Assembly (NCBI GenBank): GCA_963699545.1 | Contig: CAVOUE010000005.1 | Location: 448,001-512,000, forward strand | Origin: Nitrospirota bacterium | Lineage (GTDB): Bacteria > Nitrospirota > Thermodesulfovibrionia > Thermodesulfovibrionales > UBA9159 | DNA: 64,000 nucleotides | Direction of reading: 5' to 3' | Part shown: positions 7,891 through 63,652 of the stretch, piece by piece | Numbering within the stretch: the first letter of the stretch is position 1 | How the letters are laid out: each line of letters starts with the position of its first letter | The notes under the pieces: generated by a model | Told to the model about the DNA's origin: nothing | The model's database searches: none | The model's input: only the letters and a program-made list of their open reading frames with translations | Translations under genes and position numbers: made by a program

Positions 7891-9271
7891 CCAATATCAT
7901 CCCCTCAACCCGATGTTTGGCTTCCTCAATGATCCTTGTCGCCTCTGCCTTCAGCCTTTCGGCTTCAGAGATTCGTCTCTTAACTTCATCGGAGATTTTG
8001 TTCTGGATTTCGAGAGGGGGAATGGGGACTAGAAAATTCTCTATTGTCGATATTGTTATATTCCCTTGTATTGCCCCTATCTTTTCTCTTTCTGTAAAAA
8101 GCTTTGAAATCTTGTTGTTCAGCCATATTGAAACATATTCTTTATTAACTTCATCATTAACACAAAATTTAATCATAAACGAGCCAAAGGCAAACCCATC
8201 TGCCTCTTTTGGAACGACTGCAACAATTCCAACGGAACCGCTTCTGGAAACCAATAAATCCCCTTCATAAACAAACCCACTTCCAATTTCTTTTCTCTTT
8301 GATTCTTCAAGATGGGCTATTTCTGTTAGGTCTATCTTGTTAGGTTCTATATTTAATATTCTAAGCAGAGGTATTCCTTCATCAACATAAACATTCTTAA
8401 TAGAAACACCATAATGGATTTTTGTTACAAATTCTTTCAGCTTCGCTATCCTGTATTTCCCTTTCTCTAATGCCTTCTCAACTTCTTCAAACTTCGGCTG
8501 ATAATACGCAACATCCGCTCTGCTGTTCTGCACTTCTGCAGAGGTGACAACAAAACACATCTCGTCCTCAACCTCCGGAAGTTTTATGCCCAGGTCATCA
8601 AGCACATAACCATCAATCGAATCCAATAGCCTCTGTGCCTTAACTTTTTTTTGTTTCTTCTGGTTGTACGCCGATTGCATGATATCAACGATTTGGGTTT
8701 GGATTTCTATAGATGGAATGGGAATTAATATCTTCTTTACTTCTTCCGTGTTTAATTCGGGGCGAGTAGATTTGTTTCCCCATCTATAAATTTGCTGACT
8801 ACCAACATCAGAAAGCAAATAAGTCTTAAGGTAATATGGATTAACCTCTGGCTTGCAGGTGATTGTTACTAAGTGAGAAGTTATATTCCCCTCTATTAGT
8901 CGGTCAGGAAAGACCGCCGAGTATCCCAAAATTGCTCCTGCCTTAGTTAAAAGAACATCATTTGGCAAGACTCTACTTCTTTTTAATTCGGCGTGTTTTT
9001 CCGGAGATATTTTCACTAGATTATTTTCTGAGATTTCTCCAGTTTTAACATTTGAAACCCTTACAACCGGAATGCCTTCTGTAGTATAGTCTTCGACTTT
9101 TAATTGTGTTCCAAATGGCCCATCGACAATTCTACTGCATATATCACCAATTCTCTTTATTTCATACTTAGATTTTTGTAGCTTATGAATTAACTGCAGA
9201 TATTTAGGGTCATAAAACAGAGGGTCTATTCGTCCCTCGATCTCGTTACTCAAAACCGTAAAACACTGCAT
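7883..9271 (-). CDS. hsdS: Restriction-modification specificity (S) subunit, two TRDs
   Basis: DGPFGTQLK, IPIPSIEIQTQIV and VPIPPLEIQNKI repeats, two-TRD architecture; AT-rich. Confidence 0.9.
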   Translation of the reverse strand: MQCFTVLSNEIEGRIDPLFYDPKYLQLIHKLQKSKYEIKRIGDICSRIVDGPFGTQLKVEDYTTEGIPVVRVSNVKTGEISENNLVKISPEKHAELKRSRVLPNDVLLTKAGAILGYSAVFPDRLIEGNITSHLVTITCKPEVNPYYLKTYLLSDVGSQQIYRWGNKSTRPELNTEEVKKILIPIPSIEIQTQIVDIMQSAYNQKKQKKVKAQRLLDSIDGYVLDDLGIKLPEVEDEMCFVVTSAEVQNSRADVAYYQPKFEEVEKALEKGKYRIAKLKEFVTKIHYGVSIKNVYVDEGIPLLRILNIEPNKIDLTEIAHLEESKRKEIGSGFVYEGDLLVSRSGSVGIVAVVPKEADGFAFGSFMIKFCVNDEVNKEYVSIWLNNKISKLFTEREKIGAIQGNITISTIENFLVPIPPLEIQNKISDEVKRRISEAERLKAEATRIIEEAKHRVEGMILGD

Positions 9272-48838: not shown

Positions 48839-49014
48839 AGATCACCTGTCCCCTGTGCAAGAACATTACAACGTGGGAGGAGAATCCCTGGAGACCTTTC
48901 TGTTCCGAACGGTGCAGGCTCATCGACCTGGGTAAATGGGCATCAGGGGAATACCGGATAGAAGGAAACGAGGATGACAAAGAAGAGGAAGAGAGCAAAA
49001 AAGTAGACGAATAA
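48835..49014 (+). CDS. yacG: DNA gyrase inhibitor YacG (not in ORF track)
   Basis: Manual translation MKITCPLCK...[26 protein letters not shown], 59 aa. Confidence 0.93.
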
Positions 49015-49150
49015 CTTCGTGGTACGTTACGAGTTACGGCTTGAGGTGTGTTTTGTCTGTCTAAGAACGGAATAAAGAGTGGCTTCCAATAATTTTGTCG
49101 TACCCCTCCGGACAGTTCCCATTGGCATGCATCTCCTCGGAAAATGACAG

Positions 49151-49178
49151 TTGACATAGTTATGATAGTTGCTATAAC
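49151..49178 (+). promoter_or_regulatory. Sigma-70-type promoter of the TA pair
   Basis: TTGACA-16 nt-TATAAC with extended TG, overlapped by inverted GTTAT...ATAAC (possible operator). Confidence 0.65.
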
Positions 49179-49205
49179 CTAGTATTAAGAATAAGGAGGT
49201 GCATT

Positions 49206-49478
49206 ATGGCAAAACAAATAGGCGCTCTCGATATAAGGAAAAGTCTTGGGTCGATCCTCGAAGAGGTCTACTACAAGGGGGAGGAGTTCGTTATTAAGCG
49301 GGGCCGTAAGCCTATGGCCGTGCTGATACCGGTCGCCGAGTTTGACAACTTCAAGAAACAAAAGCAACAGGATATGCAGGTCTTCAAGACTATCCGGGGA
49401 AGAGCTAAGGGCATTGAATCAAAAGAAGTTGAAAGGGATGTGGAAGAGGCAGTAAGAGCGGTCCGCAAACGTGCATAG
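49206..49478 (+). CDS. Phd/YefM family antitoxin
   Basis: IRKSLGSILEEV...FVIKRGRKPMAVLIP. Confidence 0.88.
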   Translation: MAKQIGALDIRKSLGSILEEVYYKGEEFVIKRGRKPMAVLIPVAEFDNFKKQKQQDMQVFKTIRGRAKGIESKEVERDVEEAVRAVRKRA

Positions 49479-49896
49479 GGTTGTGGTCGATACCAATGTT
49501 CTGGTGAGTGGTGCGATCCAGAAGAAGGGATTTCCTTATAAGGTTGTCAAGGCCTGGGAAGATGACGTCTTAGCTCTTGTAACTTCCGGGCCTTTAATTG
49601 ATGAGGTAAGCAAAGTTTTACACTATGATAAAATCCGGGTGCGATATTCTTTAAAGGAAGAAGAGATTAAGCAAATCCTTTTGAACCTTATGCGATATTC
49701 TCTCTTTATCAGTGACCCGCCAAAATTGAATGTTATAAAAGAAGACCCTTCTGATAATAGTATCCTGGCTGCTGCGATAGGGGGCAAGGCGGATTATATC
49801 ATCTCGGGGGATTCACATCTTCTGAATTTGGGAGTTTATAAAGGAATAAGCATTGTGACGCCAAAAGGGTTTTGTGAGATAACAGTGAAATTATGA
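49471..49896 (+). CDS. PIN-domain toxin (VapC-like)
   Basis: VVVDTNVLVS, DPSDN, IISGDSHLL. Confidence 0.92.
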   Translation: MHRVVVDTNVLVSGAIQKKGFPYKVVKAWEDDVLALVTSGPLIDEVSKVLHYDKIRVRYSLKEEEIKQILLNLMRYSLFISDPPKLNVIKEDPSDNSILAAAIGGKADYIISGDSHLLNLGVYKGISIVTPKGFCEITVKL

Positions 49897-49918
49897 AAAC
49901 GGGGAAGGAGATAAATCT

Positions 49919-50722
49919 ATGGTAAAGATCGCTGTGGCAGGGGCCATGGGGAGAATGGGAAACAGGATCGCCGCCCTTTCAAAGGAATATGAAGCCATAA
50001 AGCTCACAGGTGCTTTCGAAAGGAAAGGGCATAAGGATATGGGCAAGGATATCGGGATCCTTGCAGGTATCGGGGAAACGTGTGTCATCCTTGAGGACAG
50101 CATCGAAAAGACCGTTGAGGCAACGGATGTGGTCATTGACTTCACACGCACCGACTCAACCATGGAACACCTCCGGACCGCGTCTGCAAAAGGAAAGGCA
50201 ATGGTCATAGGGACCACGGGGTTCACGAAAGAACAGCTCGGCGAGATAGGGGCACTCGCAAAGAATATCCCCTGCGTGATGGCATCAAATATGAGCCTGG
50301 GAGTCAACCTTTTATTGAAGGTCCTGCAGGATGTGGCCAGGGTCCTGGGCGATGAGTATGACATAGAGATCATCGAAGCACACCACAGGATGAAAAAGGA
50401 CGCTCCCAGCGGCACCGCCATGAAGATGGCGCAGGTGATCGCCGAGGCGGTGAACAGGAACCTCGATGAAGTGGCGATCTACGCGAGAAAAGGAATAATA
50501 GGGGAACGGACAAAAAAAGAGATAGGCATCCAGACCATCCGCGCAGGGGATATCGTGGGTGAGCACACAGTCCTCTTCGGAGGGCTGGGTGAGAGGATAG
50601 AGATCACCCACAAGGCGTCCAGCAGGGATACCTTTGCCCGCGGTGCGTTGAAGGCGGCCATATGGGTCCATGGCAAAACAGCCGGACTTTATGATATGCA
50701 GGATGTGCTGGGGTTGAAGTGA
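49919..50722 (+). CDS. dapB: 4-hydroxy-tetrahydrodipicolinate reductase
   Basis: GAMGRMG, IGTTG, EAHHRMKKDAPSGTA. Confidence 0.97.
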   Translation: MVKIAVAGAMGRMGNRIAALSKEYEAIKLTGAFERKGHKDMGKDIGILAGIGETCVILEDSIEKTVEATDVVIDFTRTDSTMEHLRTASAKGKAMVIGTTGFTKEQLGEIGALAKNIPCVMASNMSLGVNLLLKVLQDVARVLGDEYDIEIIEAHHRMKKDAPSGTAMKMAQVIAEAVNRNLDEVAIYARKGIIGERTKKEIGIQTIRAGDIVGEHTVLFGGLGERIEITHKASSRDTFARGALKAAIWVHGKTAGLYDMQDVLGLK

Positions 50723-51072
50723 CAAATAAAAGAATTAATCAGTTAGATTGATTGGTCCTTCGCAACCTGAAAGGACCATAAAAGCTTCCCCTGTTCCCCT
50801 GGCGGAAGTGTAGGATTATGACAGGCGCAACGTTTGCGCTTCACCTGAGAACCAACACTTAGGATGAAATGTCAAAGATATCGATTTCTGGTAGAAATAT
50901 AGCATTTTTTGGTATTATGGGGACGGAAGGGAGCAGAACGTCTTCCTTTCAACGGTGACCGGGTAAGCAACCTCAAAACAGACATCCTGAAATCGTTACC
51001 GTGTTGCTTCCGTGACGTGCGGGTTTTTCCAGGTCGTGGGGACAGACGTTGCGAGGATGAGGTACTAAGCTA

Positions 51073-52335
51073 TTGAGACAAAAGGGCGTAAACACTAAAG
51101 ACGGAACTTTCAAAGAAAGCTTCAAGGATATTCAGTTTCGTCCCATTCATCCGTTTCCGGCTCGTATGACACCATCAATCGCATGGGACAGCCTGACGAA
51201 CTGTAGTCGAAAGCCCCTGAAAGTTCTCGATCCGATGACGGGATCAGGTACAACAGCTGTTGTCGCTAAATCCCTTGGGCACACCGTTATCGGCTTCGAC
51301 ACAGATCCCTTGGCGGTCTTGATAGCAAATACCTGGTGCACTGAAATTGATGGGGATAAATTATTAGAAAAAGCCTCTGAAGTATTGGACAGGGCGATAG
51401 AACGTTGCAGCCATTTACCTCTACGCGAAGCATACCCTCGACAGGCTGACGCCGAGACCCGCGCTTTCATGAGATATTGGTTCGATAGTTGTAATCGTCG
51501 GCAGCTCGCAGTATTAGCTGAGGCAATTTCACGGCTGCACGACAGAGCACTTAAGACTGCATTGTGGTGCGCCTTTTCGCGACTTATAATTACCAAGAAA
51601 ATCGGCGTATCTCTTGCTATGGACATATCTCACAGTCGGCCTCATCGGGTCTATGACAAAGCACCGATTAAGCCTTTTGACAAATTCTTAGCATCTGTTG
51701 AAACAATTTCAAGGAGATTACCGTTCACAAAGAATGGAAGCAGCTTGCCTGACGCGAGTATTCGATTAGGGGATGCCCGTAAGCTCCCCGTTAATGATCG
51801 AAGTATAGATATTGTCATCACCTCACCTCCTTATCTTAACGCTATTGATTACCTGAGGGGACATAAGTTATCTCTGATTTGGAACGGATATTCCCTCAAA
51901 GACCTCCGGCAAATTCGATCATCAAACGTCGGTGCTGAAAACTCTCTATCGGAGAATCATCTCAAAGATTGTGTTCACCACATTCTGGCAGAGATGGGAG
52001 CGGTTGAAAGGTTACCAGCACGAATAAGAGGCATTCTAAGAAGATATGTCCATGACATGGATTCAGTGCTCGGAGAAATAAGCCGCGTACTGAATATTCG
52101 AGGCCACGCAGTGGTAGTCATTGGTGATTCAACCATAAAGGGCACGTTCATCCAAAATTCGAAAGCACTGACTCTTCTTGGAAGACGACACGGTCTAAAC
52201 CTACAGTCTATTAGACGAAGAGAATTACAGGACAATCGGCGTTATCTTCCACCACCAACTTCAGTTGCCGCAGGTTCACAATTGCAGGGCCGAATGAGAG
52301 AGGAAGTTATAATGACTTTCAGCCTTTGTGCATAG
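51073..52335 (+). CDS. Amino-DNA methyltransferase (likely N4-cytosine)
   Basis: IHPFPARM, LDPMTGSGTT (motif I), ITSPPY (motif IV). Confidence 0.85.
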   Translation: MRQKGVNTKDGTFKESFKDIQFRPIHPFPARMTPSIAWDSLTNCSRKPLKVLDPMTGSGTTAVVAKSLGHTVIGFDTDPLAVLIANTWCTEIDGDKLLEKASEVLDRAIERCSHLPLREAYPRQADAETRAFMRYWFDSCNRRQLAVLAEAISRLHDRALKTALWCAFSRLIITKKIGVSLAMDISHSRPHRVYDKAPIKPFDKFLASVETISRRLPFTKNGSSLPDASIRLGDARKLPVNDRSIDIVITSPPYLNAIDYLRGHKLSLIWNGYSLKDLRQIRSSNVGAENSLSENHLKDCVHHILAEMGAVERLPARIRGILRRYVHDMDSVLGEISRVLNIRGHAVVVIGDSTIKGTFIQNSKALTLLGRRHGLNLQSIRRRELQDNRRYLPPPTSVAAGSQLQGRMREEVIMTFSLCA

Positions 52336-52420
52336 AACAGCGAGGCTCTGATCAATGATTATTATAATGGGTACGATATATGAGCGATGGGTAAATATTA
52401 AATAGGGACGAAAGACCTAA

Positions 52421-53047
52421 GTGCCAACAGAAGAATGGCTTGATGAAATACATGAACGACTCTTAGCAGACGACCCAGTTGCGCCGGCTGAACTCGCTGA
52501 AAACATCTTAGATATCCTCATAAAAAAACTTTCTGCAAGGTATTACTATCTCAATGATCCAGCCATAGTTATTGATGCAGTCAGTGACGCCATTCTTAGC
52601 TACATCAAGAATCCAAGACAGTTTAATCCGTCAAAAAGAGGACTTTTGGGCTATCTGCAGATGGCTGCTGAAGGTGACCTAAAAAATGCCCTCTCGAAGA
52701 TAAGCCGGCGCAACAAGAAAGAATTAATAAGCGATGATGTCGAACTTACCCTATTGGGTGGGAATATATCATTAAGAAAAGGATTTACTCATAACGATGC
52801 GATCTCCTCTGAGGATAAGCAAAACCTCAAGAAAGTGCGTGGTGCTATCAGCACATTGTTCAAGGACACGAAAGACCTGAAGATTGCAGAAATGATTATA
52901 GAAGGAGAAAGATCAACCCCGGCTTTCGCGACAGTCCTTGGCTTGCAAGGACTGAGCATTGAAGGGCAAAAAAGAGAAGTGAAACAGCACAAAGATCGTA
53001 TTAAGAAATGCCTGGAGCGTTATTTGAAAGGTAGCCATGAAAAATAA
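52421..53047 (+). CDS. Divergent ECF-like sigma-70 factor
   Basis: Sigma2-like DAVSDAILSY...FNPSKRGLLGYL...DLKN; sigma4-like C-terminal helix VKQHKDRIKKCL; no sigma3. Confidence 0.6.
   Translation: MPTEEWLDEIHERLLADDPVAPAELAENILDILIKKLSARYYYLNDPAIVIDAVSDAILSYIKNPRQFNPSKRGLLGYLQMAAEGDLKNALSKISRRNKKELISDDVELTLLGGNISLRKGFTHNDAISSEDKQNLKKVRGAISTLFKDTKDLKIAEMIIEGERSTPAFATVLGLQGLSIEGQKREVKQHKDRIKKCLERYLKGSHEK
52738..52768 (+). promoter_or_regulatory. Promoter-like motif copy 1, inside the sigma gene
   Basis: TGTCGAACTT-accctattgggt-GGGAATATA; 27/31 identical to 54217-54247. Confidence 0.6.
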
Positions 53048-53459
53048 ATACAGCTCTGACTTGATAGAACAACTTGCTTTCCGTGCAAGTAATGACATGT
53101 TTTTTCTTGGTAATATTATTGCTGACTTCAAAGCTCTTAATAAACTCAGCGGCTTGGATATGTCTGATTTCCTTGAATGCTCTCCCGATGCTATAAAAAG
53201 ACTCGCTTTATGTCGTCTGCCTGATGATCGAGACGAGCGGTTTAGGGATGACATCAATCGTATCTCAGGTTATGTGAAATGCAATGCCGATAAACTTATT
53301 ACCCTCATCCGCCAAGTGAATACTTTAAGAACCTTGCGTGGAGAAAGCGCAAAACATGCTGCGTCAAGTTTGCTAATGGCAGCCCGTGATCGTCGCCCCG
53401 AGAAGCAGACCAGGCGTAAGCATAAGAAATCTTCAAAAGATGAAGAAGAGACCACATGA
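53037..53459 (+). CDS. Small HTH-like protein, candidate regulator or peptidase substrate
   Basis: Coupled to both neighbours; LSGLDMSDFLECSPDAIKRL resembles an XRE HTH; LLMAARDR near the C-terminus. Confidence 0.6.
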   Translation: MKNKYSSDLIEQLAFRASNDMFFLGNIIADFKALNKLSGLDMSDFLECSPDAIKRLALCRLPDDRDERFRDDINRISGYVKCNADKLITLIRQVNTLRTLRGESAKHAASSLLMAARDRRPEKQTRRKHKKSSKDEEETT

Positions 53460-54214
53460 TGTTTGATAAAGAGATCGTTCGTTGTGCCGAGAAATTCTGG
53501 CGACTTGTCGGAAAGTACGAACCTTTTCCCCGCGCACTTGAGGCCCCGATATTATGGGCACTGCCTGTTGCCATTGTGAAACTGCCGCATCTTGGTTTGA
53601 AAGAAATCCAACAGTGGCTTGTGGAGCGCAACATTGTACTGGACTTCAGGACACCAAGTCGCGCAGTACGAGCTTGTCTCATTGCCAAAGCTGGTAAAGG
53701 AATTATTTTTCTTGATGGATGCGATACAAGTGACGAACAGCGCTTATCTTTGGCTCACGAGCTGGCACATTATTTAAAGGATTACTTAGAACCTCGCGAG
53801 AAAGCCCTTAAAACCTTCGGCGAAACAATCAATGAAGTTCTCGATGCTATCAGGCCTCCCACTCCAACAGAACGGCTGGCTGGAATTCTTAAGAGTGTGC
53901 CAATAGGAATATTTACAGATCTCATAGAAAGATCATCGGCAGGCGATATTCACCGCATGGCTATTCTGGAAGCAGAAGATTTTGCAGATCAGCTTGCAAT
54001 TGAGCTCTTGGCTCCAAATAAAGTAGTTGTTCGCCACTTGGAAGCTCAGGGGATTGTCTGGAAAAGTGATAATGCAAATGATTTATGTTGTCATATGCTG
54101 ATGGCTGTTTTTGGCCTTCCTGCCGATGTAGCAAAGGAATATAGCGATATGCTGATTATGGCTGGGAGCCAACCGAAATCATTTAGAGAATGGCTTGGGG
54201 TTCGGTCAGTATGA
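53456..54214 (+). CDS. ImmA/IrrE family metallo-endopeptidase
   Basis: QRLSLAHELAH (HExxH) and EDFADQLAIELLAP. Confidence 0.88.
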   Translation: MMFDKEIVRCAEKFWRLVGKYEPFPRALEAPILWALPVAIVKLPHLGLKEIQQWLVERNIVLDFRTPSRAVRACLIAKAGKGIIFLDGCDTSDEQRLSLAHELAHYLKDYLEPREKALKTFGETINEVLDAIRPPTPTERLAGILKSVPIGIFTDLIERSSAGDIHRMAILEAEDFADQLAIELLAPNKVVVRHLEAQGIVWKSDNANDLCCHMLMAVFGLPADVAKEYSDMLIMAGSQPKSFREWLGVRSV

Positions 54215-54216
54215 TT

Positions 54217-54247
54217 TGTCGAACTTAGTCTATAGGGCGGGAATATA
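54217..54247 (+). promoter_or_regulatory. Promoter-like motif copy 2, upstream of nurA-herA
   Basis: TGTCGAACTT-agtctatagggc-GGGAATATA, ~36 nt before the TTG start with AAGGAG RBS. Confidence 0.65.
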
Positions 54248-54283
54248 ATTGCAGAGAGCAAAATTTGCTATAAGGAGAATGAG

Positions 54284-55516
54284 TTGGAAATAGAAGACAA
54301 GAGGTCAGGGCAAGAGCAGGATGCAGATGAATCAAACCTGATGCCCATTTCAGAAAGTGACTACGAGATAGCAACAGGAGAACCCCTGTCCAAAACGCTA
54401 GATCTTGATACATGGCATCCGGGTGAAGACCTTGTCGAAATGTATAACCGCCTGAGACAAGAAATTGCAGATGCAGTAAAAGATGAAAAACGATTTCAAG
54501 AACAGATTCGAGAGCAAATATTTCCAATGCTGCGCACAAGACAGGATGCGCCCCCTGGTGCAGGCGTTTATAAAGTAACTGCAGATCAGTTACAAGACGT
54601 GCATCAAAAACTACTTTTTAACGGTGGGGTTGAGGCTTGCGATGGGACGGTTGTGCCTTATGACACCTTGCCCGTTACTATAACTCAAATAGGCGTCTGT
54701 TTAGTATCTTACAGAGGTGATCAGGGATCATGGGTTCATAGAGTATTTCGGAGGGATTTGAGAACAACTGGAAAGAATCCCATAGAAGAGACACTTAATC
54801 TCCTTGACCGCCGCCATCAACGCGGGGCAGTTGATCAGCAAAGCACGCGCGATCAGCTAAGCAGTCTTACACAGAGGGGAATCATGGCATATGCCGAGCG
54901 AGCTGTATTACTTGAAAAGTCACAGGCTGTTTGGCGAATGGGCCATGGCAATCCTACACCCTACGAGTTAGTAGCAGGTTCAGGGATGCCTGAGCTCTTA
55001 AAAGCCAGCTTGCCGCTCATGAGTCGCTTGGTTTTGGAACATAAGAAATTTGTTTATATCGCTAATAGAATTTCTGCTCGCGATTTAGTTACGATCGGGA
55101 ATGCATTACCCCCACTGCATTATGCAATCGTAGATACCAATGAAAGTATGTTAAAGAAGATTCTCTTGCGTGGTCACTATAGGGGGACTGTATGGGGGCC
55201 CCTCGGCGATGCTGTTCGCGATTTTGTGGGTGAGTGCGGCTCTAAGATTATCTGTGGCCTATATCGCGCGTCAAACTTCTCGCCATGTCAGGTTTTTTAC
55301 GCCCATGTTGATCATGCTCATGAAGCAGCGTTAATTGCCATCGCTGATAGTGTACTTCAGGAACATAGAGGGTTTCCCATGCTTATTGACCTGGCTGATG
55401 GCCTTTGCAGCACACTCTTCGGACCTGACATATTTTCTGCTTCGATTCAAATGGCATATGCTGAGGCCAATGAGCCTTTCCGTTATATGGCGGAAAGAAA
55501 GACTCGCAATCGTTAA
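54284..55516 (+). CDS. NurA-like (RNase H/PIWI fold) nuclease
   Basis: VEACDGT followed by beta strands, AER helix, C-terminal RGFPMLIDLAD; directly upstream of HerA. Confidence 0.65.
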   Translation: MEIEDKRSGQEQDADESNLMPISESDYEIATGEPLSKTLDLDTWHPGEDLVEMYNRLRQEIADAVKDEKRFQEQIREQIFPMLRTRQDAPPGAGVYKVTADQLQDVHQKLLFNGGVEACDGTVVPYDTLPVTITQIGVCLVSYRGDQGSWVHRVFRRDLRTTGKNPIEETLNLLDRRHQRGAVDQQSTRDQLSSLTQRGIMAYAERAVLLEKSQAVWRMGHGNPTPYELVAGSGMPELLKASLPLMSRLVLEHKKFVYIANRISARDLVTIGNALPPLHYAIVDTNESMLKKILLRGHYRGTVWGPLGDAVRDFVGECGSKIICGLYRASNFSPCQVFYAHVDHAHEAALIAIADSVLQEHRGFPMLIDLADGLCSTLFGPDIFSASIQMAYAEANEPFRYMAERKTRNR

Positions 55517-55530
55517 GGAGGTATAACCAC

Positions 55531-57345
55531 ATGGAGAATAGAGATGGAATTCTGAACACACCGGAGGAAGCTTTTAAAGCAATTGATGAGGACAGTGAGC
55601 GGGCAGGAGGACCATGGACACCTCCCGCAGACTTCGATGGCAGTATTGGCAGGACAATGTTTGATACTCCATCCAGCAAGGACGGAACCGTAACCGTTCT
55701 TATGCCTAATGAGAATATTGATGCTCTCCCCAGTCAGGCCTTAGTAAGAATAAAGAGTGAAAACCGCATCTATCTCGGAGCTGTGATAGAAGGACCTTTT
55801 GCCGAACCGGATGGACTTCGAGCTGATGCTACGCCAATGGTTATTTCAATAGTAAAGGGCGGTTTGCTTATACCGAAATACCATGGAAGAGTCCAGGTTG
55901 AAATCATAGGTGAGAAATTAGAAGGTGGTGCAATTGTTCCACCACGTCGTAGGCCAAAGCCTAATAGCCCTGTATTTCCTCTTGATGCTGCTGAAACAGC
56001 TGAGGTTCTTCGTATAGACGGGAACATGAGACTCGGCCTTGCAGATGGTTTTGATGATCTCGCTCTAAATATTCAGTCGGACAAGAAAAGTGTCTTTCCA
56101 CGGCATTTGGGAATTCTGGGAACTACTGGTGGCGGCAAATCGACAACGGTCTCCGGATTAGTTGATAAGGCTCAAAGACGGGGAATGTCAGTCATTCTCA
56201 TAGACACGGAGGGAGAATATTCCACCATAAATGAGCCAACAACCAACAAAGATATGATCGAGGCATTGTTACGTCAAAAACTAGAGCCTGCAAGCGTAGA
56301 AAATACACATGTTCATCATTTGGTTGGTCGCGAAACTGCAAATCCTCAACACCCGAGGGTATCTCCTTTTTCGTTGCGTTTTAGTGAACTATCTCCTTAT
56401 TCTGTTAAAGAAATTCTTGCAATTGAGGAAGAAGCGCAGGAGCGACGTTTTCTTAAGGCGTATGATATAACGAAAGCTGCATTAGAAAAATTCAAAATAT
56501 GGCCTCGAAATAAAGAAGAGCAAACAATGCTTGTTGAACTTGACGAGCTTGAGACAGGATATCCGATGATGACCTTAACACATTTATACGATGTAATTAG
56601 ACAGATTTCCGCAATGATTGGGGATGAGGATGATCCTTATCTTGTCACGCCTATTTTTAATCAAAATCGTGACGAATTAAAAAAAATCATAAAGAGCATG
56701 AAACCCGAGGCTCATAAATTTAGTTGGTGGTCGTTGCAAGGCAAATTGGGAAAGATTTATCGGTTAAAGATTTTTGATACACCTCAAGTTCCATCATTAG
56801 ACTATGAGGCAATGCTCCAACCAGGTCGAGTCTCGATCTTGGATCTCAGCGATACAGATTCTCCACAAGTGAATAATCTAGTTATTGCTCAACTTCTCCG
56901 TGGAGTTCAAAGTCAACAAGAGGAAAACTATAAAAAGGCAGTGGCAGAAAATCGTCAACCGACGCCAACTGTAATTTTTATCGAAGAAGCCCATGAATTT
57001 CTCTCAGTGCAGCGCATTAATAAGATGCAAATGTTATTTCAGCAGGTCGCTCGTATAGCTCGCCGTGGCCGGAAACGCTGGCTTGGTCTTGTATTCGTGA
57101 CACAGTTACCACAACACCTGCCTGATGAGGTTTTAGGACTCATAAATAACTGGATACTTCACAAGATCAGTGACACTGCTGTGATTACACGACTTAAGAA
57201 ATCGATTGGTGGCATTAATGAAGGGCTTTGGCGGCAGTTGCCGTCACTTGCTCCAGGACAGGCAGTCGTATCTTTTACGACGCAGGCTCGACCTCTCTTG
57301 GTGACTATAGATCCAACACCATGCCAACTTCTCATGGTGGAGTAA
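55531..57345 (+). CDS. HerA/FtsK family ATPase (DUF87) with N-terminal beta-barrel
   Basis: RHLGILGTTGGGKS, IDTEGEY, IEEAHEF, IARRGRK, VTQLP. Confidence 0.92.
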   Translation: MENRDGILNTPEEAFKAIDEDSERAGGPWTPPADFDGSIGRTMFDTPSSKDGTVTVLMPNENIDALPSQALVRIKSENRIYLGAVIEGPFAEPDGLRADATPMVISIVKGGLLIPKYHGRVQVEIIGEKLEGGAIVPPRRRPKPNSPVFPLDAAETAEVLRIDGNMRLGLADGFDDLALNIQSDKKSVFPRHLGILGTTGGGKSTTVSGLVDKAQRRGMSVILIDTEGEYSTINEPTTNKDMIEALLRQKLEPASVENTHVHHLVGRETANPQHPRVSPFSLRFSELSPYSVKEILAIEEEAQERRFLKAYDITKAALEKFKIWPRNKEEQTMLVELDELETGYPMMTLTHLYDVIRQISAMIGDEDDPYLVTPIFNQNRDELKKIIKSMKPEAHKFSWWSLQGKLGKIYRLKIFDTPQVPSLDYEAMLQPGRVSILDLSDTDSPQVNNLVIAQLLRGVQSQQEENYKKAVAENRQPTPTVIFIEEAHEFLSVQRINKMQMLFQQVARIARRGRKRWLGLVFVTQLPQHLPDEVLGLINNWILHKISDTAVITRLKKSIGGINEGLWRQLPSLAPGQAVVSFTTQARPLLVTIDPTPCQLLMVE

Positions 57346-57356
57346 AGTGAGGAATA

Positions 57357-57812
57357 ATGATGGATGCAAATAGACAAATACTTTATACAATTGGTTTTAC
57401 TGGAAAAAGCGCTGAGGAGTTTTTCTCGCTCTTGAAAAAAGCCGGGGTCAAGATTCTACTGGATATCAGGCTCAACAATGTCTCTCAGCTTGCCGGTTTT
57501 ACTAAGGGGAAAGACCTATCTTACTTTGTTCGGGCGATACTGGACGGCCAGTATTATCACATGACCGACCTTGCACCGACGAAAGAACTACTGAAAAAAT
57601 ATCAGGCAGATAAGGACTGGCAGAGTTATGAAAAAGAGTTTCTGTCTCTCTTGGAAAAGCGAAATGCAGAGGCTAAGATTAAACCTGAACTCCTCAAAGG
57701 GCCTACGGTTCTGCTCTGCAGTGAAAAGACGGCCGAAAAATGCCACCGCCGGCTTACCGCCGAATATTTGCAGAAAAAAATGTTGGCAGATTACACAATA
57801 GAGCACCTGTAG
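57357..57812 (+). CDS. DUF488 family protein
   Basis: LYTIGFT, LLDIRL, LAPT, LLCSE...CHR. Confidence 0.9.
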   Translation: MMDANRQILYTIGFTGKSAEEFFSLLKKAGVKILLDIRLNNVSQLAGFTKGKDLSYFVRAILDGQYYHMTDLAPTKELLKKYQADKDWQSYEKEFLSLLEKRNAEAKIKPELLKGPTVLLCSEKTAEKCHRRLTAEYLQKKMLADYTIEHL

Positions 57813-57817
57813 GGACT

Positions 57818-58543
57818 ATGCTTAAAAAGACACTCATAATTACCGACGTTACCAAAATGAGCGACGATAATGTTTGCATCGCCGGATATGACGACACTTT
57901 GACATGCATACGGCCCGTGCTGTCCAGAGGGCAGCTTAGGAAAAAGAATCTCTTTAAGGACGGTGAACTTATCATCTTCCCCGGTGCAAAGGTTGCGTTT
58001 ATTCTCAGCTCTGGAATATCTCAGCCGCCTCATGTTGAGGATATCATTTTCGAAGAAACCTCTATTGCAAGCATGAGAAGGGTATCAGTGAGAGAATGGA
58101 AGGAAATCTTAACACGGACTGCCACACAAAACGTTGGTGAACTCTTCAGTTATATTGAGGATCGCTGCGTGCCTCCTGGATCACCGGGGCCTTCGATCGG
58201 CACAATTCTGCCGGCTGAGATACCGACTCTCAGCTGTGATTATTACAAAGATCCTCCGCGCCCAAGAATGAGATTTGTTGATCAAGGTGGTATCATAAAG
58301 AACAATGTCCCGATAACCGACCTTGCATTTCGTAATATGTTTGATTTCTATCTGGCGAAGTATAAAGGCGACTGCGAAAAAACCGTAAAGCTTTTAAACA
58401 ATAAATTGGCGGACCATGATATATATCTTCGTCTCGGCCTGTCACGTTCCTTTCGAGGCTGTTGCTGGCTTCAAGTAAACGGAATCCATACATTTCCTGA
58501 TCTTTATGACAGAGATTATTGTGATTGGATACAGTTAGATTAG
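57818..58543 (+). CDS. Dual OB-fold domain protein
   Basis: VTKM...VCIAG...IRPV, PPHVED, ITD, LRLGLSR; start re-set to ATG 57818. Confidence 0.65.
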   Translation: MLKKTLIITDVTKMSDDNVCIAGYDDTLTCIRPVLSRGQLRKKNLFKDGELIIFPGAKVAFILSSGISQPPHVEDIIFEETSIASMRRVSVREWKEILTRTATQNVGELFSYIEDRCVPPGSPGPSIGTILPAEIPTLSCDYYKDPPRPRMRFVDQGGIIKNNVPITDLAFRNMFDFYLAKYKGDCEKTVKLLNNKLADHDIYLRLGLSRSFRGCCWLQVNGIHTFPDLYDRDYCDWIQLD

Positions 58544-58971
58544 AATAGATTTTGCTGCCGTTCAACAAGAAGCGGGTAGTCTTTGTCTCTGGTCTCTACT
58601 TCAGCTTCCTTAACCGGCAAGGGACGTTCACCTTCATTAATGACATTGACCCCGACTTTTTCACCCAATTTGATGAGAAAGTCTGCAAGCAGATAACGAT
58701 GGCAGTGGTCATCAGCCCGGCAGTAACAAAGAAGTGTTAAAACGCCTTTTTCGAGGATATCGTGCCATGCCTTTTGATTGCGCTTATAGCTTTGAAGCAT
58801 CAATTCACGGTAACGCTGCGAGTAGGTATCCCAACTTATTTCGCCTGCTTTCCACGCCTGCACGATATTCCAGGTAGGTGCAAAATTAATATCTCCACTT
58901 TTCACCGTGACATCATAGGCATCTTCGCCTTTATATTTCCCGATTTGGGCTGTATAAAGATGCAGTTCCAT
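58540..58971 (-). CDS. DUF488-like protein (second, divergent subfamily)
   Basis: FAPTW, ISWDTYSQRY, LTLLCYC...CHR. Confidence 0.75.
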   Translation of the reverse strand: MELHLYTAQIGKYKGEDAYDVTVKSGDINFAPTWNIVQAWKAGEISWDTYSQRYRELMLQSYKRNQKAWHDILEKGVLTLLCYCRADDHCHRYLLADFLIKLGEKVGVNVINEGERPLPVKEAEVETRDKDYPLLVERQQNLF

Positions 58972-59262
58972 GACTGACTATAGTATAACAACTGGCAATC
59001 TGTTTTTGTATCCTCTTTTTTTGCTTCAAACCGGGGGGGCTTGGCAGAGCGTTGCTGAGGCTCTCATTTCCCGCAAGGCGTGGCACCAGTTTGGAAAAGC
59101 TCAGTAATTGGCTTTCAAACGTGACGTTTTCCAACTCGAAACCGTCGGTCTTGAAGCCTTATATTAGTACTGTGAGAACTCAAAACCATTTGCACTCGCC
59201 ACCTATTGATCTCGCAGCGGGGATAAGGGCAGTTACGTTCCAACGTCTTATGAAGGAAGTCG

Positions 59263-59805
59263 CTACTCCAGCACCTTCCCCATCAGGACCTCATCGAAAT
59301 ACTCATTCCCCAGCCAGAACCTCTTCAGCCTTGTACCTTCTTCCTGAAATCCGGCGCGGCTGAAGAGATGGAGGGAACGCTTGTTCGTGGTAAAAATGCT
59401 GGCCTCCAGTTTCTTGAAGCCGTGCTCCTTTGCCCATGCATCCACATACTGCAGCATCTGAGAACCGATGCCGAACCCGCGGTATGTCTCAGCGAGATGA
59501 AGCCCGGTCTTGAGGATATGCGCGGTGCGGGGGTTGTCCCCTTCGTCCGCCTGAAAAGCAGCAAGGCTTCCCACCACCTCGCCTCTGGCAGTGGCTACCA
59601 GGAGAAGGCACTTCTTGCAATCTATCAGGCGGATATATTCCTTTTCCGAGTCCGCGCTCTTGCCATACTGCTCCATCAGGATATAGCTTCGCTCCACAGA
59701 CGTGGATTTGATCGTCCTGACGATCGCTGCAGCATCCTCCGGCACAGCCGGCCTGAGGGTGACCTCTTCATTGTTTTTCGCCAGGAACTTCTGAGCCTCT
59801 TCCAT
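59263..59805 (-). CDS. GNAT family N-acetyltransferase
   Basis: TLRPAVPEDA, YRGFGIGSQM, NKRSLHLF; start re-set to MEEAQ. Confidence 0.9.
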   Translation of the reverse strand: MEEAQKFLAKNNEEVTLRPAVPEDAAAIVRTIKSTSVERSYILMEQYGKSADSEKEYIRLIDCKKCLLLVATARGEVVGSLAAFQADEGDNPRTAHILKTGLHLAETYRGFGIGSQMLQYVDAWAKEHGFKKLEASIFTTNKRSLHLFSRAGFQEEGTRLKRFWLGNEYFDEVLMGKVLE

Positions 59806-59961
59806 ACCCAATCCTTCCTTTCGCTTCATTATACATCGAACTCGTGCTCCCCACAATAGGAGCAGCGGGAACGCAGGGAAAAACCTGTGGTAATGCTGCG
59901 AAGAAATTGATATAATCATTTCTACGATCAACGCATTCAGCCCGCGCTTGATATATATGCC

Positions 59962-62232: not shown

Positions 62233-62937
62233 TTACACTCCCAGATACGCTGCCCTCACATGCTCGTCATTGAGCAATGCCTGCCCTGTCCCCTGAAGGG
62301 TTATTTTGCCGGTCTCGAGCACATAAGCCCTGTCAGCTATCGAAAGGGTCTGCTTCGTATTCTGCTCTACGACAAGAACCGTGGTTCCCTCTTCACGTAT
62401 TTTTTTTATGACATTGAATATCTCTCGGACAAGGATAGGGGCGAGGCCCAGAGAAGGCTCATCGAACATCAGCAGTTTCGGCAATGACATCAGCCCTCTC
62501 CCTATCGCGACCATCTGCTGCTCACCGCCGCTCAATGTGCCCGCAAGCTGCCTTCTGCGTTCCTTGAGCCTCGGGAAGAGCCCAAATACCATCTCTTTCG
62601 TCTTCTGTCTCTGTCTCTTCGCATCGCCTTTCAGGGAACCCATGTCAAGGTTCTCCTCCACCGTCATCTCCACAAAGAGTCTTCTCGCTTCGGGACAGAG
62701 GGCCATTCCCATCTCTATGAGCCTGTATGCCTCGACTTTGTGGATGGGAGTGCCTTCAAAGAGGATATCTCCCTTCCTCGGTCTCAATATCCCGGAAACC
62801 GTCTTCAGGGTAGTGGATTTCCCTGCTCCGTTCGCACCGATAAGGGCAACCACCTCCCCCTTCTTCACATCAAAGGAAACATCCCAGATCACCTGGACAT
62901 CGCCATAAAAGACGTCGATATTTCTTATCTCAAGCAC
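62233..62937 (-). CDS. livF: Branched-chain amino acid ABC transporter ATPase
   Basis: GANGAGKS, LSGGEQQM, DEPSLGLAP; GTG start at 62937. Confidence 0.95.
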   Translation of the reverse strand: MLEIRNIDVFYGDVQVIWDVSFDVKKGEVVALIGANGAGKSTTLKTVSGILRPRKGDILFEGTPIHKVEAYRLIEMGMALCPEARRLFVEMTVEENLDMGSLKGDAKRQRQKTKEMVFGLFPRLKERRRQLAGTLSGGEQQMVAIGRGLMSLPKLLMFDEPSLGLAPILVREIFNVIKKIREEGTTVLVVEQNTKQTLSIADRAYVLETGKITLQGTGQALLNDEHVRAAYLGV

Positions 62938-63652
62938 TTTTTTCCTCTCCGAGGTAGGCTTCAACAACGAGAGGGTTGTTTGCTATCTCATGTGGTGTTC
63001 CCTCGGCGATCTTTTCACCATAGTTGAGAACCACTATCCGGTCCGAAATGGCCATGATGACCTTCATGTGGTGCTCAATGATCATTATCGTTATCCCTCT
63101 TTCTTTTATCTTCCGTATGATCCCAATGGATTCATCAAGCTCATGCGGGTTAAGCCCTGCGAAGGACTCGTCCAGAAGAAGCATTTCGGGTTGCGTGGCA
63201 AGCGCCCTTGATATCTCGAGCTTCTTTCTCTTCCCGAGCGGGAGGCCCTTCGAAATAACATCCCTGTCATCAAGGAGACCGGTAAACGTGATCGTTTCCA
63301 AAGCTATCTCCACGGCCTGAGCCCTGCTCTTCACTCTCATGAAAGCGGAGGCGATGACATTGTCAAGGACGCTCATCCTCTGGAGCGGCTTTACCACCTG
63401 AAAGGTCCTGGCGATCCCAAGCTTGCAGATCTGATGGGGCTTCAGACCGGATATCTTCTTCTCCTGAAAAAAAACCTCTCCCTTTGTGGGCTTGTAGAAC
63501 CCGTTCACTACGTTAAAAAGGGTCGTCTTGCCCGCGCCGTTCGGTCCGATCAGTCCGAGGATATCTCCTTTCCTGATGTCAAATGAGACTCCGCTCACCG
63601 CAGCAAGGCCGCCGAAGAACATTGACACCTTCTCGACGTGAAGCAAACTCAT
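62930..63652 (-). CDS. livG: Branched-chain amino acid ABC transporter ATPase
   Basis: FGGLAAV, GPNGAGKTT, ARTFQ, IEH. Confidence 0.95.
   Translation of the reverse strand: MSLLHVEKVSMFFGGLAAVSGVSFDIRKGDILGLIGPNGAGKTTLFNVVNGFYKPTKGEVFFQEKKISGLKPHQICKLGIARTFQVVKPLQRMSVLDNVIASAFMRVKSRAQAVEIALETITFTGLLDDRDVISKGLPLGKRKKLEISRALATQPEMLLLDESFAGLNPHELDESIGIIRKIKERGITIMIIEHHMKVIMAISDRIVVLNYGEKIAEGTPHEIANNPLVVEAYLGEEKSA

Follow-up and report, generated by a model that had tools for sequence, protein, structure and literature searches.

The sigmaE-RseA and sigmaW-RsiW pairs each combine an extracytoplasmic function (ECF) sigma factor with an anti-sigma factor, from which it is freed by regulated proteolysis. 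To our knowledge, all described partners of M78 peptidases, namely DdrO, ImmR, and CapH, are DNA-binding repressors, and we know of neither a sigma factor nor an M78 switch in TdpABC. As far as the accessible parts of the respective papers extend, an M78 partner is presented as a DNA-binding repressor (PMC12828697), and TdpABC as a phosphorothioate (PT)-based restriction-modification (R-M) system (PMC13223576; PMC12914056). The stretch analyzed here, referred to as the window, comprises 64,000 nucleotides of contig CAVOUE010000005.1 from a Nitrospirota bacterium (contig C5 of this genome) and harbors, within an inserted island, a cassette (module 1) that is built of known kinds of parts combined anew: a sigma-70-family sigma factor, a small acidic-tailed protein, an M78 peptidase, a NurA-like protein, and a HerA-type ATPase, preceded in the window by a DNA methylase. 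On balance, and with a confidence that leans only modestly to this side, module 1 is considered to be a self-contained, horizontally mobile, inducible DNA-processing cassette with its own transcription switch. An earlier sequence-only reading of the window had taken these six genes, together with a DUF488 gene, a dual-OB (DuOB) gene, and a second DUF488 gene behind them, for a single undescribed system of eight or nine genes; the core of this interpretation was right, the series from the sigma factor to HerA being conserved, but its extent was wrong, as two modules and not one are present. No named system in PADLOC matches the cassette beyond generic methyltransferase (MTase), HerA, and capP matches, as that reading had surmised, and literature searches, which did not cover a possible CRISPR-linked mention in Shmakov et al. 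2018 (PNAS), found no description of a sigma-M78-NurA-HerA cassette.

The composition of module 1 is apparent from its conservation. One genome per species was scanned, and the best 80 of 100 confirmed stretches were retained as species-level loci (designated by L-numbers), with whose six-frame open reading frames (ORFs) the proteins of the window were compared. A match to the NurA-like protein is present in all 80 loci, to the M78 peptidase in 77, to HerA and to the sigma factor in 76 each, to the small protein in 72, and to the methylase in 44; several of the non-matching loci are cut by contig ends. On account of these counts, the conserved unit consists of five genes (sigma factor, small protein, M78, NurA-like, and HerA) plus a facultative methylase. 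Gene order and strand are constant in nearly all loci, the exceptions being L038 (methylase after herA), L048 (methylase inverted), and L071 (trio of sigma factor, small protein, and peptidase after herA), and herA follows the nurA-like gene in 76 of the 80. The triad is thus co-conserved with nurA-like and herA across the comparison, as the sequence-only reading had presupposed. Spacing is equally tight, with median gaps of -8 nt between the sigma and small-protein genes, -1 nt between small protein and peptidase, 76 bp between peptidase and nurA-like, and 18 nt between nurA-like and herA. The corresponding values in the window are an overlap of 11 nt, an overlap of 4 nt and, for the NurA-like and HerA genes, a gap of 14 nt.

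The cassette is both widespread and very patchy. The 80 loci span about ten phyla and come from delta-proteobacterial/Thermodesulfobacteriota lineages, Planctomycetota, Chloroflexota, Acidobacteriota, Latescibacterota, and Gammaproteobacteria, as well as from Deinococcota (Calidithermus), Firmicutes-type lineages, Bacteroidota, Chthonomonadaceae, and Babeliales. The NurA-like protein has at least 2616 relatives at E <= 0.001 among 8000 candidates scored (90% clustering); the best 120 relatives are 59-95% identical, none of them carries a Pfam domain, and those that are named are hypothetical proteins. Within the window's order, a profile of the NurA-like family matches only 1 of 151 genomes sampled, which is the window's own, and neither of the two other genomes of the genus. 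An identity of 60-70% between phyla points to horizontal spread.

Local context in the window agrees with such mobility. The island (50723..59961) lies between dapB and a fumarase gene and holds both modules and a GNAT gene; its GC content is 0.39-0.49 across 51000-58999, compared with 0.50-0.60 in most flanking 500-nt bins. In the same-genus genome G132, dapB and the fumarase gene are only 170 bp apart on one contig, as against 9.2 kb in the window, and the island is for this reason regarded as an insertion into what is an empty site in G132. The junction is moreover a variable site, as the same gap measures 0.9 kb in G018 and 4.1 kb in G005, two genomes of the same family. The segments concerned in the window are 50723-51072 and 59263-59961 (loci compared, L088-L095). 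Direct repeats flanking the island were not found by the repeat finder. All nine ORFs on which the earlier interpretation was built are present, and they do lie in a low-GC insertion.

Regarding the transcription switch, the first gene of the conserved unit (52421..53047, + strand) encodes an ECF-like sigma factor with a sigma-2 and a predicted sigma-4 domain, as judged from an AlphaFold2 (AF2) model, structure searches with Foldseek and VIA, and profiles. In the model (pLDDT 88), a disordered linker (residues 108-124) separates two helical domains, and the C-terminal half is helical at pLDDT 82-97. With this model, the 50 best rows from Foldseek and the 50 from VIA consist of sigma factors throughout. 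In VIA, residues 3-207 match full-length sigmaE (1or7_B; 157 aa aligned, Z 11.5), and for sigmaE region 2 (4lup_A) 91 of 91 residues are aligned with Z 11.3 at an rmsd of 2.1. The assignment of the fold relies on the uniformity of the structure-match list, as a Z of such size alone is not decisive for helical proteins. At the profile level, the seven PDB matches of the sigma family are likewise all sigma factors, headed by the ECF factor SigE (2q1z, 1.2e-3), and Pfam Sigma70_r2 matches 24 of 58 family members (best 7.7e-9). By its predicted structure, the protein is a sigma factor fold, as the sequence-only reading had proposed.

The second gene (53037..53459, + strand) encodes a small protein whose Xre-like helical N-terminal domain is connected through a variable linker to a conserved C-terminal L-x-A-A-R-D-R motif, with an acidic tail behind it. 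In an alignment of 51 sequences, C59 and A116 are invariant, and the LALCRRP and AARD motifs are nearly so. HTH_31 matches 8 of the 51 members (best 4e-5), which amounts to a weak Xre-type helix-turn-helix (HTH) signal; no Pfam family was found for the window protein and no known anti-sigma Pfam family among the family matches, and the family profile returned nothing convincing from the PDB (HipB chains at E ~0.4). When modeled as a complex, the sigma factor and the small protein reach an ipSAE of 0.80 vs 0.44 for the best control. Of the solved complexes, 58 of 80 attain this mark, as do 2 of 110 mismatched pairs; these rates are approximate since custom family alignments were used. At least 96% of contacts recur between runs, and the pLDDT of the partner is at least 73. 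In the modeled interface, sigma residues 17-34 and 51-63 (sigma-2 helices) face the small-protein segments 5-23, 55-62 (its LALC stretch), and 72-80. The model thereby supports binding of the small protein to sigma domain 2, in the manner of an anti-sigma-like partner. The AARD motif lies outside this predicted interface and would therefore be free for another partner such as the peptidase. The HTH-like protein of the sequence-only reading retains its weak Xre-type signal but looks more like a sigma-binding partner than like a plain HTH repressor.

The third gene of the trio (53456..54214, + strand) encodes a zinc metallopeptidase of the M78 (IrrE/ImmA/CapP) type, with a Pfam PF06114 score of 25.4 bits vs a cut-off of 22, and 61 of 61 family members match PF06114. 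In its HExxH signature, H101 and H105 are invariant and E102 is nearly invariant. The family profile matches IrrE (3dte, 2.6e-3) and CapP (7t5t, 0.011), and the PADLOC capP model matches at 1.5e-6. A TAL effector, which is the top PDB match of the profile, was set aside as a repeat artefact.

A bipartite, promoter-like motif connects this trio with the genes behind it. In the window, the motif reads TGTCGAACTT, followed after ~13 nt by GGGAATA, and is present in two copies. The first (54217..54247, + strand) occupies the gap between the peptidase and nurA-like genes, starting 3 nt past the peptidase stop and ending 37 nt before the nurA-like start. The second (52738..52768, + strand) lies inside the sigma gene, in the region coding for the interdomain linker. 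Pattern matching over the 64-kb window finds these two sites only (54218-54244 and 52739-52765), where 0.04 would be expected, and the repeat finder, which is independent of the pattern, identifies 52738-52768 and 54217-54247 as a 31-nt direct repeat of 87% identity. A scan of the window for sigma-70-type promoters and terminators stayed at chance level (14 found vs 14.0 expected, and 10 vs 9.0). In the 3.04-Mb genome, the strict pattern has seven matches, of which only the two cassette sites carry the flanking T, TT, and trailing A (by eye). A genome-wide regulon was considered and dropped: a near-match on contig C12, placed within or against coding sequence, has no gene after it and is attributed to chance.

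Across the peptidase/nurA-like gaps of the loci, the consensus is T-GTCGAAC-TT, a fixed-length spacer of free sequence, and (C/G)GGAATA; 11 or 12 nt separate the extracted blocks in 34 of the 36 instances. Among 81 sources (the 80 loci and the window), 42 have the -35-like 9-mer between the peptidase and nurA-like genes and 31 have it within the sigma gene, 27 of the latter at an offset of 314-389 nt from the start as called; some ten further copies occupy these two places in loci with failed gene calls. Assuming uniform base composition, the 137 matches in total compare with ~79 expected at random over 2.6 million positions; for the gap regions, the random expectation is below one. At the aligned columns of the internal copy, valine codons are GTC in 46 of 46 cases, as against 234 of 750 family-wide, and glutamate codons are GAA in 40 of 43, as against 559 of 1128. 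The main alternative residue there is alanine (GCA), which recreates a variant -35 form also present in gap sites. Such fixation of synonymous codons points to selection on the DNA.

The two sites also vary together. Counted by eye on 31 listed loci, the same 4-base -10 core is present at gap and internal sites in 29; seven of the eight loci with a minority core (GGTA or TGTA) at the gap site carry the same core internally, and four of the six with a C-variant -35 at the gap site have it internally as well. These loci are not all independent, since L011 repeats L009 and L045 nearly repeats L040. Extra copies are found before the Mre11-like gene after herA in L024, and before the sigma gene in L034 and L067. 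On the opposite strand, copies in L061 (~7974, -) and L077 (~7942, -) point at a DUF2130 gene that lies upstream of the sigma gene in divergent orientation and may belong to the regulon as an additional member in Gemmataceae loci. AAC, which is typical of ECF -35 elements, is present in this motif too. The motif looks like a cognate promoter because it is asymmetric, two-block, and of fixed spacing, and because it co-varies with the linked sigma factor, so that the sigma factor seems to have two private predicted promoters inside the cassette. The conserved promoter-like motif before nurA-like and the sigma/small-protein model both fit the proposal that a dedicated sigma factor switches on NurA-HerA. 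The bipartite motif at two cassette sites is new here; its sigma-internal copy, as well as the link to cas genes described below, was absent from the sequence-only reading.

These same data bear on a variant in which both motif copies are occupied by the small protein, acting as a DNA-binding repressor of the DdrO/CapH type, until the peptidase removes it, with the sigma factor as a constitutive specificity subunit. The weak Xre-type signals of the small protein (HTH_31 and the HipB chains), the match of the PADLOC capP model to the peptidase, and the repressor nature of all M78 partners that we know of are in its favor. However, a bipartite motif with fixed spacing and a free spacer is promoter-like and lacks the dyad expected of an Xre dimer, and the complex model places the LALC motif, the most conserved part of the small protein, against sigma-2, where it would not be free for DNA. 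The variant is therefore considered very unlikely.

The genes presumed to be under the control of this switch encode a nuclease-like protein and its motor. The NurA-like protein (54284..55516, + strand) was modeled with pLDDT 88.5 and pTM 0.86, and in VIA it matches Thermococcus kodakarensis NurA (9x1m_G) with Z 18.0 (285 aa, 4.2 A), 2ygk with Z 17.5, a third archaeal NurA with Z 17.3, a TdpAB chain (8wfd_G) with Z 14.9, and Deinococcus radiodurans NurA (7f6d_G) with Z 12.4. The next folds are more distant, i.e., EndoV with Z at most 10.8 and Argonaute PIWI domains with Z ~9. By its model, the protein is thus of the RNase H-like NurA fold. No Pfam family was found at E up to 0.01, nor did the family profile find any NurA chain in the PDB, and for this reason the protein is filed as NurA-like by fold and not as a member of the Pfam family. 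D120, Q135, D158, E205, H221, and D355 are invariant in 64 of 64 sequences, which come from loci with and without a methylase. Its neighbor (55531..57345, + strand) is a HerA-type hexameric ATPase/translocase with DUF87 (1.7e-20; 74.5 bits vs a cut-off of 23.2) and HerA_C (2.7e-11; 43.3 vs 22) domains and a Walker A motif, GGGKST, in its translation. The closest solved chains are those of Sulfolobus solfataricus HerA (4d2i, 1.3e-22) and T. kodakarensis HerA (9x1l, 3.4e-20).

That the closest HerA structures are archaeal end-resection proteins, and that the NurA-like protein is likewise closest to end-resection NurA structures, raises the alternative of a damage-inducible repair module, i.e., a portable unit for end resection at double-strand breaks with an IrrE-type protease switch, as in IrrE/DdrO of Deinococcus. 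The match of the peptidase profile to IrrE, one locus (L038) in a Deinococcota genome, the dispensability of the methylase in 36 of 80 loci, and Mre11-like and Rad50-like genes after herA in L013 and L024, in the latter with their own motif copy, would all suit such a unit. Against it stand the very patchy spread (1 of 151 genomes of the order), the location of the cassette in a low-GC insertion at a variable spot, the horizontal spread to which the identity between phyla points, and the frequency of DNA methylase (44/80) and cas genes (17/58), as housekeeping repair genes are not usually so distributed. A repair module is accordingly regarded as unlikely. As an observation in its own right, the Mre11-like (Metallophos) and Rad50-like (SMC/AAA_23) genes directly after herA (L024, 8200-11999, with the motif copy at 8136-8170; L013, 13087-16844) recreate the archaeal four-gene set. 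Within the window, no mre11 or rad50 gene is adjacent to the cassette, in agreement with the sequence-only reading.

Various other genes can be found after herA. Among the 58 loci with at least 1.5 kb of sequence beyond herA, 17 have co-oriented cas genes within 8 kb, which start at most 1.5 kb away in 14 and within 120 bp of the herA stop in 9. They encode Cas4-Cas1 fusions, Cas1, Cas3, and Cas6, followed by type I genes, and cas genes lie upstream of the cassette in three further loci. Other products encoded after herA are UvrD with a PD-(D/E)XK nuclease, RNase_T-type exonucleases, Mre11/Rad50-like, WYL, HNH, NADAR, ARPP-1, and DUF6119 proteins, and transposases. A small RNase_T (DEDD) exonuclease directly follows herA in L008 (12270-12797) and L051 (7281-7841); UvrD comes next in L051, with a PD-(D/E)XK nuclease in related loci.

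The recurrence of cas genes suggests a further alternative, in which the cassette is a CRISPR accessory module that processes DNA ends to prespacers, or repairs the array after integration, and co-induces cas genes from its private promoter. In addition to the 17 of 58 loci, 9 of them with a cas gene within 120 bp, this would be consistent with the literature to the extent of the text available: NurA and HerA are counted among "putative CRISPR auxiliary genes" and "DUF87 + NurA" loci are listed (Altae-Tran et al. 2023, PMC10910872), and in Sulfolobus Csa3a co-activates cas1/cas2 with herA and nurA (PMC10013973, a review). However, 41 of the 58 loci lack a downstream cas gene, the only Cas1 match in the window's genome is on contig C3 and not on C5, and no motif copy was seen directly before a cas gene with the patterns used. 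Adjacency of cas genes is, moreover, weak evidence when taken alone, because defense genes cluster in general. This alternative is deemed quite unlikely.

As for the methylase (51073..52335, + strand), it is a DNA amino-methyltransferase of the N6_N4_Mtase family, with a Pfam PF01555 match (5.9e-10) above the curated cut-off, a PADLOC MTase_II match at 1.6e-24, and an SPPY motif in its translation. Homologues adjoin the core in 44 of the 80 loci, which sustains the inclusion of the methylase in the system but as a facultative and not an obligatory member.

Taken together, these elements would allow the following sequence of events. The methylase, where present, and the trio of sigma factor, small protein, and peptidase would be expressed at a basal level, and the small protein would keep the sigma factor inactive by binding its sigma-2 domain. 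A cue such as those of IrrE, ImmA, and CapP, i.e., DNA damage or single-stranded DNA, possibly arising from phage infection, would lead the M78 peptidase to cleave the small protein, perhaps at or near the conserved C-terminal AARD motif. The freed sigma factor would then direct RNA polymerase to the two private promoters. The first, before nurA-like-herA, would also drive fused downstream cargo, which would be DUF488-DuOB in the window and cas, Mre11/Rad50-like, or exonuclease genes elsewhere. The second, internal to the sigma gene, would renew expression of the small protein and peptidase and thereby close a feedback loop. The NurA-like protein and HerA would translocate on and degrade linear or broken DNA, perhaps in defense of the host, with the methylase possibly marking self DNA. 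Such an arrangement would be a new regulatory design, namely a private-promoter sigma factor that is locked by an Xre-derived soluble anti-sigma factor, the latter being destroyed by an IrrE/CapP-type protease on a DNA-damage or infection cue, and would serve as a portable ignition for swapped cargo. It is put forward tentatively, as a design somewhat short of probable. In this design, the switch could work in any host phylum because transcription would depend only on the cassette's own sigma factor, and the cargo would always include NurA-HerA, to which cas operons, Mre11/Rad50-like genes, exonucleases, or the DUF488-DuOB module would be added.

Several points weigh against module 1 as a mobile, inducible cassette with its own switch. 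With regard to the sigma factor, the window protein scores below the cut-offs of Sigma70_r2 (6e-4, 20 bits vs 24, Pfam) and TIGR02937 (1.9e-5, NCBIfam), and Pfam Sigma70_r4 matches none of the 58 family members. A complex control with an unrelated protein in place of the sigma factor scored 0.44, so that the small protein appears somewhat sticky in the model. As to the motif, about half of the loci lack it under the patterns used, some having miscalled genes and others divergent motifs, and the co-variation counts were made by eye. ECF -10 elements often contain CGT, which is missing from the -10-like element, and another possible role of the motif is that of an operator bound by the Xre-like small protein. 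A simple custom script supplied the gene calls and start codons of the loci. The methylase is missing from 36 of 80 loci; where the region upstream of such loci was inspected, the neighbors are unrelated housekeeping genes, 13 of the 19 upstream genes scanned falling into unrelated families and 6 giving no match. This weakens an R-M logic, and an obligatory modification-nuclease linkage of the R-M type is not seen, with the methylase in 44 of 80 loci. Many downstream neighbors are also housekeeping genes, e.g., those of leucyl-tRNA synthetase (LeuRS), GreA, and transporters, so that a defense-island context is not universal. Finally, the plasmid and phage collections searched gave no match to the NurA-like protein, and carriage of the cassette by plasmid or phage was set aside on this basis. 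The alternatives considered above are not mutually exclusive with parts of the reading as a self-switched cassette.

The three remaining genes that the sequence-only reading had included form a module of their own (module 2). The first (57357..57812, + strand), 11 nt after herA, encodes a DUF488 protein (DUF488a; PF04343, 2.2e-24; PADLOC PDC-M45C, 4.2e-56). The second, 5 nt further on (57818..58543, + strand), encodes a DuOB-like protein; its ORF is listed from 57740, and the ATG at 57818 is taken as its start in keeping with the 241-aa homologues. The third (58540..58971, - strand) is convergent and encodes a second DUF488 protein (DUF488b) of the N3a subclade (PF22751, 1.5e-16). Both DUF488 proteins are above the Pfam cut-off. 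The window DuOB-like protein has no direct Pfam match; of its relatives (n=71), many carry a precomputed PF22557 (DuOB) annotation, and the nearest Atlas clusters are DuOB (score 0.97). None of the 80 module 1 loci contains DUF488a, DUF488b, or DuOB-like, nor do they contain dapB, GNAT, or the fumarase gene, and the place of the DUF488 and DuOB genes in a conserved system is accordingly withdrawn. In six metagenome loci encoding a DuOB-like protein, DUF488a directly precedes it in 6 of 6 and the convergent DUF488b follows in 4 of 6, the other two ending before that position. Being absent from the 80 loci and found alone elsewhere, the three genes are a separate module, and a single nine-gene system was ruled out on the same grounds. 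Among L082-L087, the DUF488-DuOB pair comes after herA in L087 only, which is closely related to the window; in L084, 3.6 kb of other genes, including one for a NERD protein, lie upstream of module 2.

Read-through from the nurA-like promoter into DUF488-DuOB would nevertheless be expected in the window, as no gap or convincing terminator separates herA from DUF488. The fusion of this module behind herA, the methylase-bearing form, and the clean insertion site are specific to this window. Concerning the PADLOC candidate PDC-M45, component C matches DUF488a (4.2e-56) and DUF488b (1.2e-11), component B matches over 40 residues only (1.1e-6), and component A has no match among the island proteins. 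In L007 (13786-14778), a small beta-flower ORF precedes the gene of an ARPP-1 protein, the second gene past herA. Pfam names ARPP-1 as ARG and Rhodanese-Phosphatase-superfamily-associated, and DUF488 is a member of the rhodanese-phosphatase superfamily, which makes ARPP-1 after herA a second hint of such genes as recurrent cargo.

Elsewhere in the window, another low-GC stretch (0.42-0.46) lies at 49000-49999, just upstream of dapB and outside the island, and contains only small ORFs of 90-141 aa. Two neighboring paralogous ORFs of ~240 aa (62236-63652, - strand) cluster with ORFs of L002 and L056.

If the proposed switch operates as outlined, module 1 would represent a widespread family, with more than 2600 NurA-like homologues and with loci in about ten phyla, which unites an ECF-type sigma factor, an IrrE/CapP-type protease switch, and a HerA-NurA nuclease motor in an undescribed way. 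It would provide a first example of an M78 protease with a sigma/anti-sigma pair as its target, and would explain how a mobile cassette can be inducible across very different hosts. A testable link would be established from DNA-end processing to CRISPR-cas expression or adaptation, and the orthogonal sigma/promoter pair, with its natural specificity variants, might serve as a genetic tool. Given the motif and the predicted interface, every step of the mechanism is open to direct testing.

Compared with the HerA-NurA end-resection complex (Sulfolobus 2ygk/4d2i, Thermococcus 9x1l-9x1n, and Deinococcus 7f6d), module 1 shares the NurA fold (Z 12-18), the adjacent HerA, and tight coupling (14-nt gap). 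It differs in that its NurA-like protein has no sequence match to Pfam NurA or PDB chains, in its location on a mobile island, in being preceded by its own sigma factor, small protein, M78 peptidase, and often methylase, and, in the window, in the absence of mre11/rad50. TdpABC (TdpAB, 8wfd) likewise has a modification gene beside a HerA-like ATPase and a NurA-fold protein, with the Z of 14.9 for 8wfd_G and a match of TdpA to HerA at 4.6e-5. In contrast, the modification in module 1 is methylation and is facultative, and Pfam finds no PT-synthesis domain in the island. In SIR2-HerA and DUF4297-HerA, a HerA ATPase is also paired with an effector, and their PADLOC HerA models (1e-30 to 1e-18) and the structures 8wiv, 8j4u, and 8xau (~1e-11) match the HerA of module 1. 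Here, however, the effector is of the NurA fold, HerA is nearer to archaeal repair HerA, and a dedicated regulatory trio is present. With the "DUF87 + NurA" loci (Altae-Tran et al. 2023, PMC10910872), the likeness is a NurA and DUF87/HerA pair beside CRISPR-cas, which can be set next to the 17 of 58 loci; no sigma factor, M78 peptidase, or promoter link is mentioned in the figure legend and locus names through which these loci were compared. MADS was considered as well and rejected, its PADLOC matches being weak (methylase to mad2, 1.5e-10; HerA to mad8, 4.6e-24) and absent for the other seven island proteins. As far as the accessible text goes, its nuclease module is an OLD-type MAD3-MAD4 pair (PMC13662399), i.e., of another type than in the island, which lacks the set of eight mad components including MAD3-MAD4.

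With regard to the switch, module 1 resembles CapP/CapH (from CBASS and other defense operons), IrrE/DdrO (Deinococcus), and ImmA/ImmR (ICEBs1) in having an M78 HExxH peptidase beside a small Xre-like protein, upstream of an effector operon. Unlike these, it adds a co-translated sigma factor, its small protein is predicted to bind this sigma factor rather than only DNA, and the sites thought to be regulated are promoter-like and not dyad operators. It shares with sigmaE-RseA and sigmaW-RsiW a two-domain sigma factor of ECF size, a co-transcribed partner that is predicted to sit on sigma-2, and a -35-like element with AAC. In contrast to these pairs, the partner in module 1 is soluble, Xre-like, acidic-tailed, and outside the known anti-sigma families, the protease is a cytoplasmic M78 enzyme instead of a site-1/site-2 membrane protease, one predicted promoter copy lies inside the sigma gene, and the putative regulon is the cassette itself.

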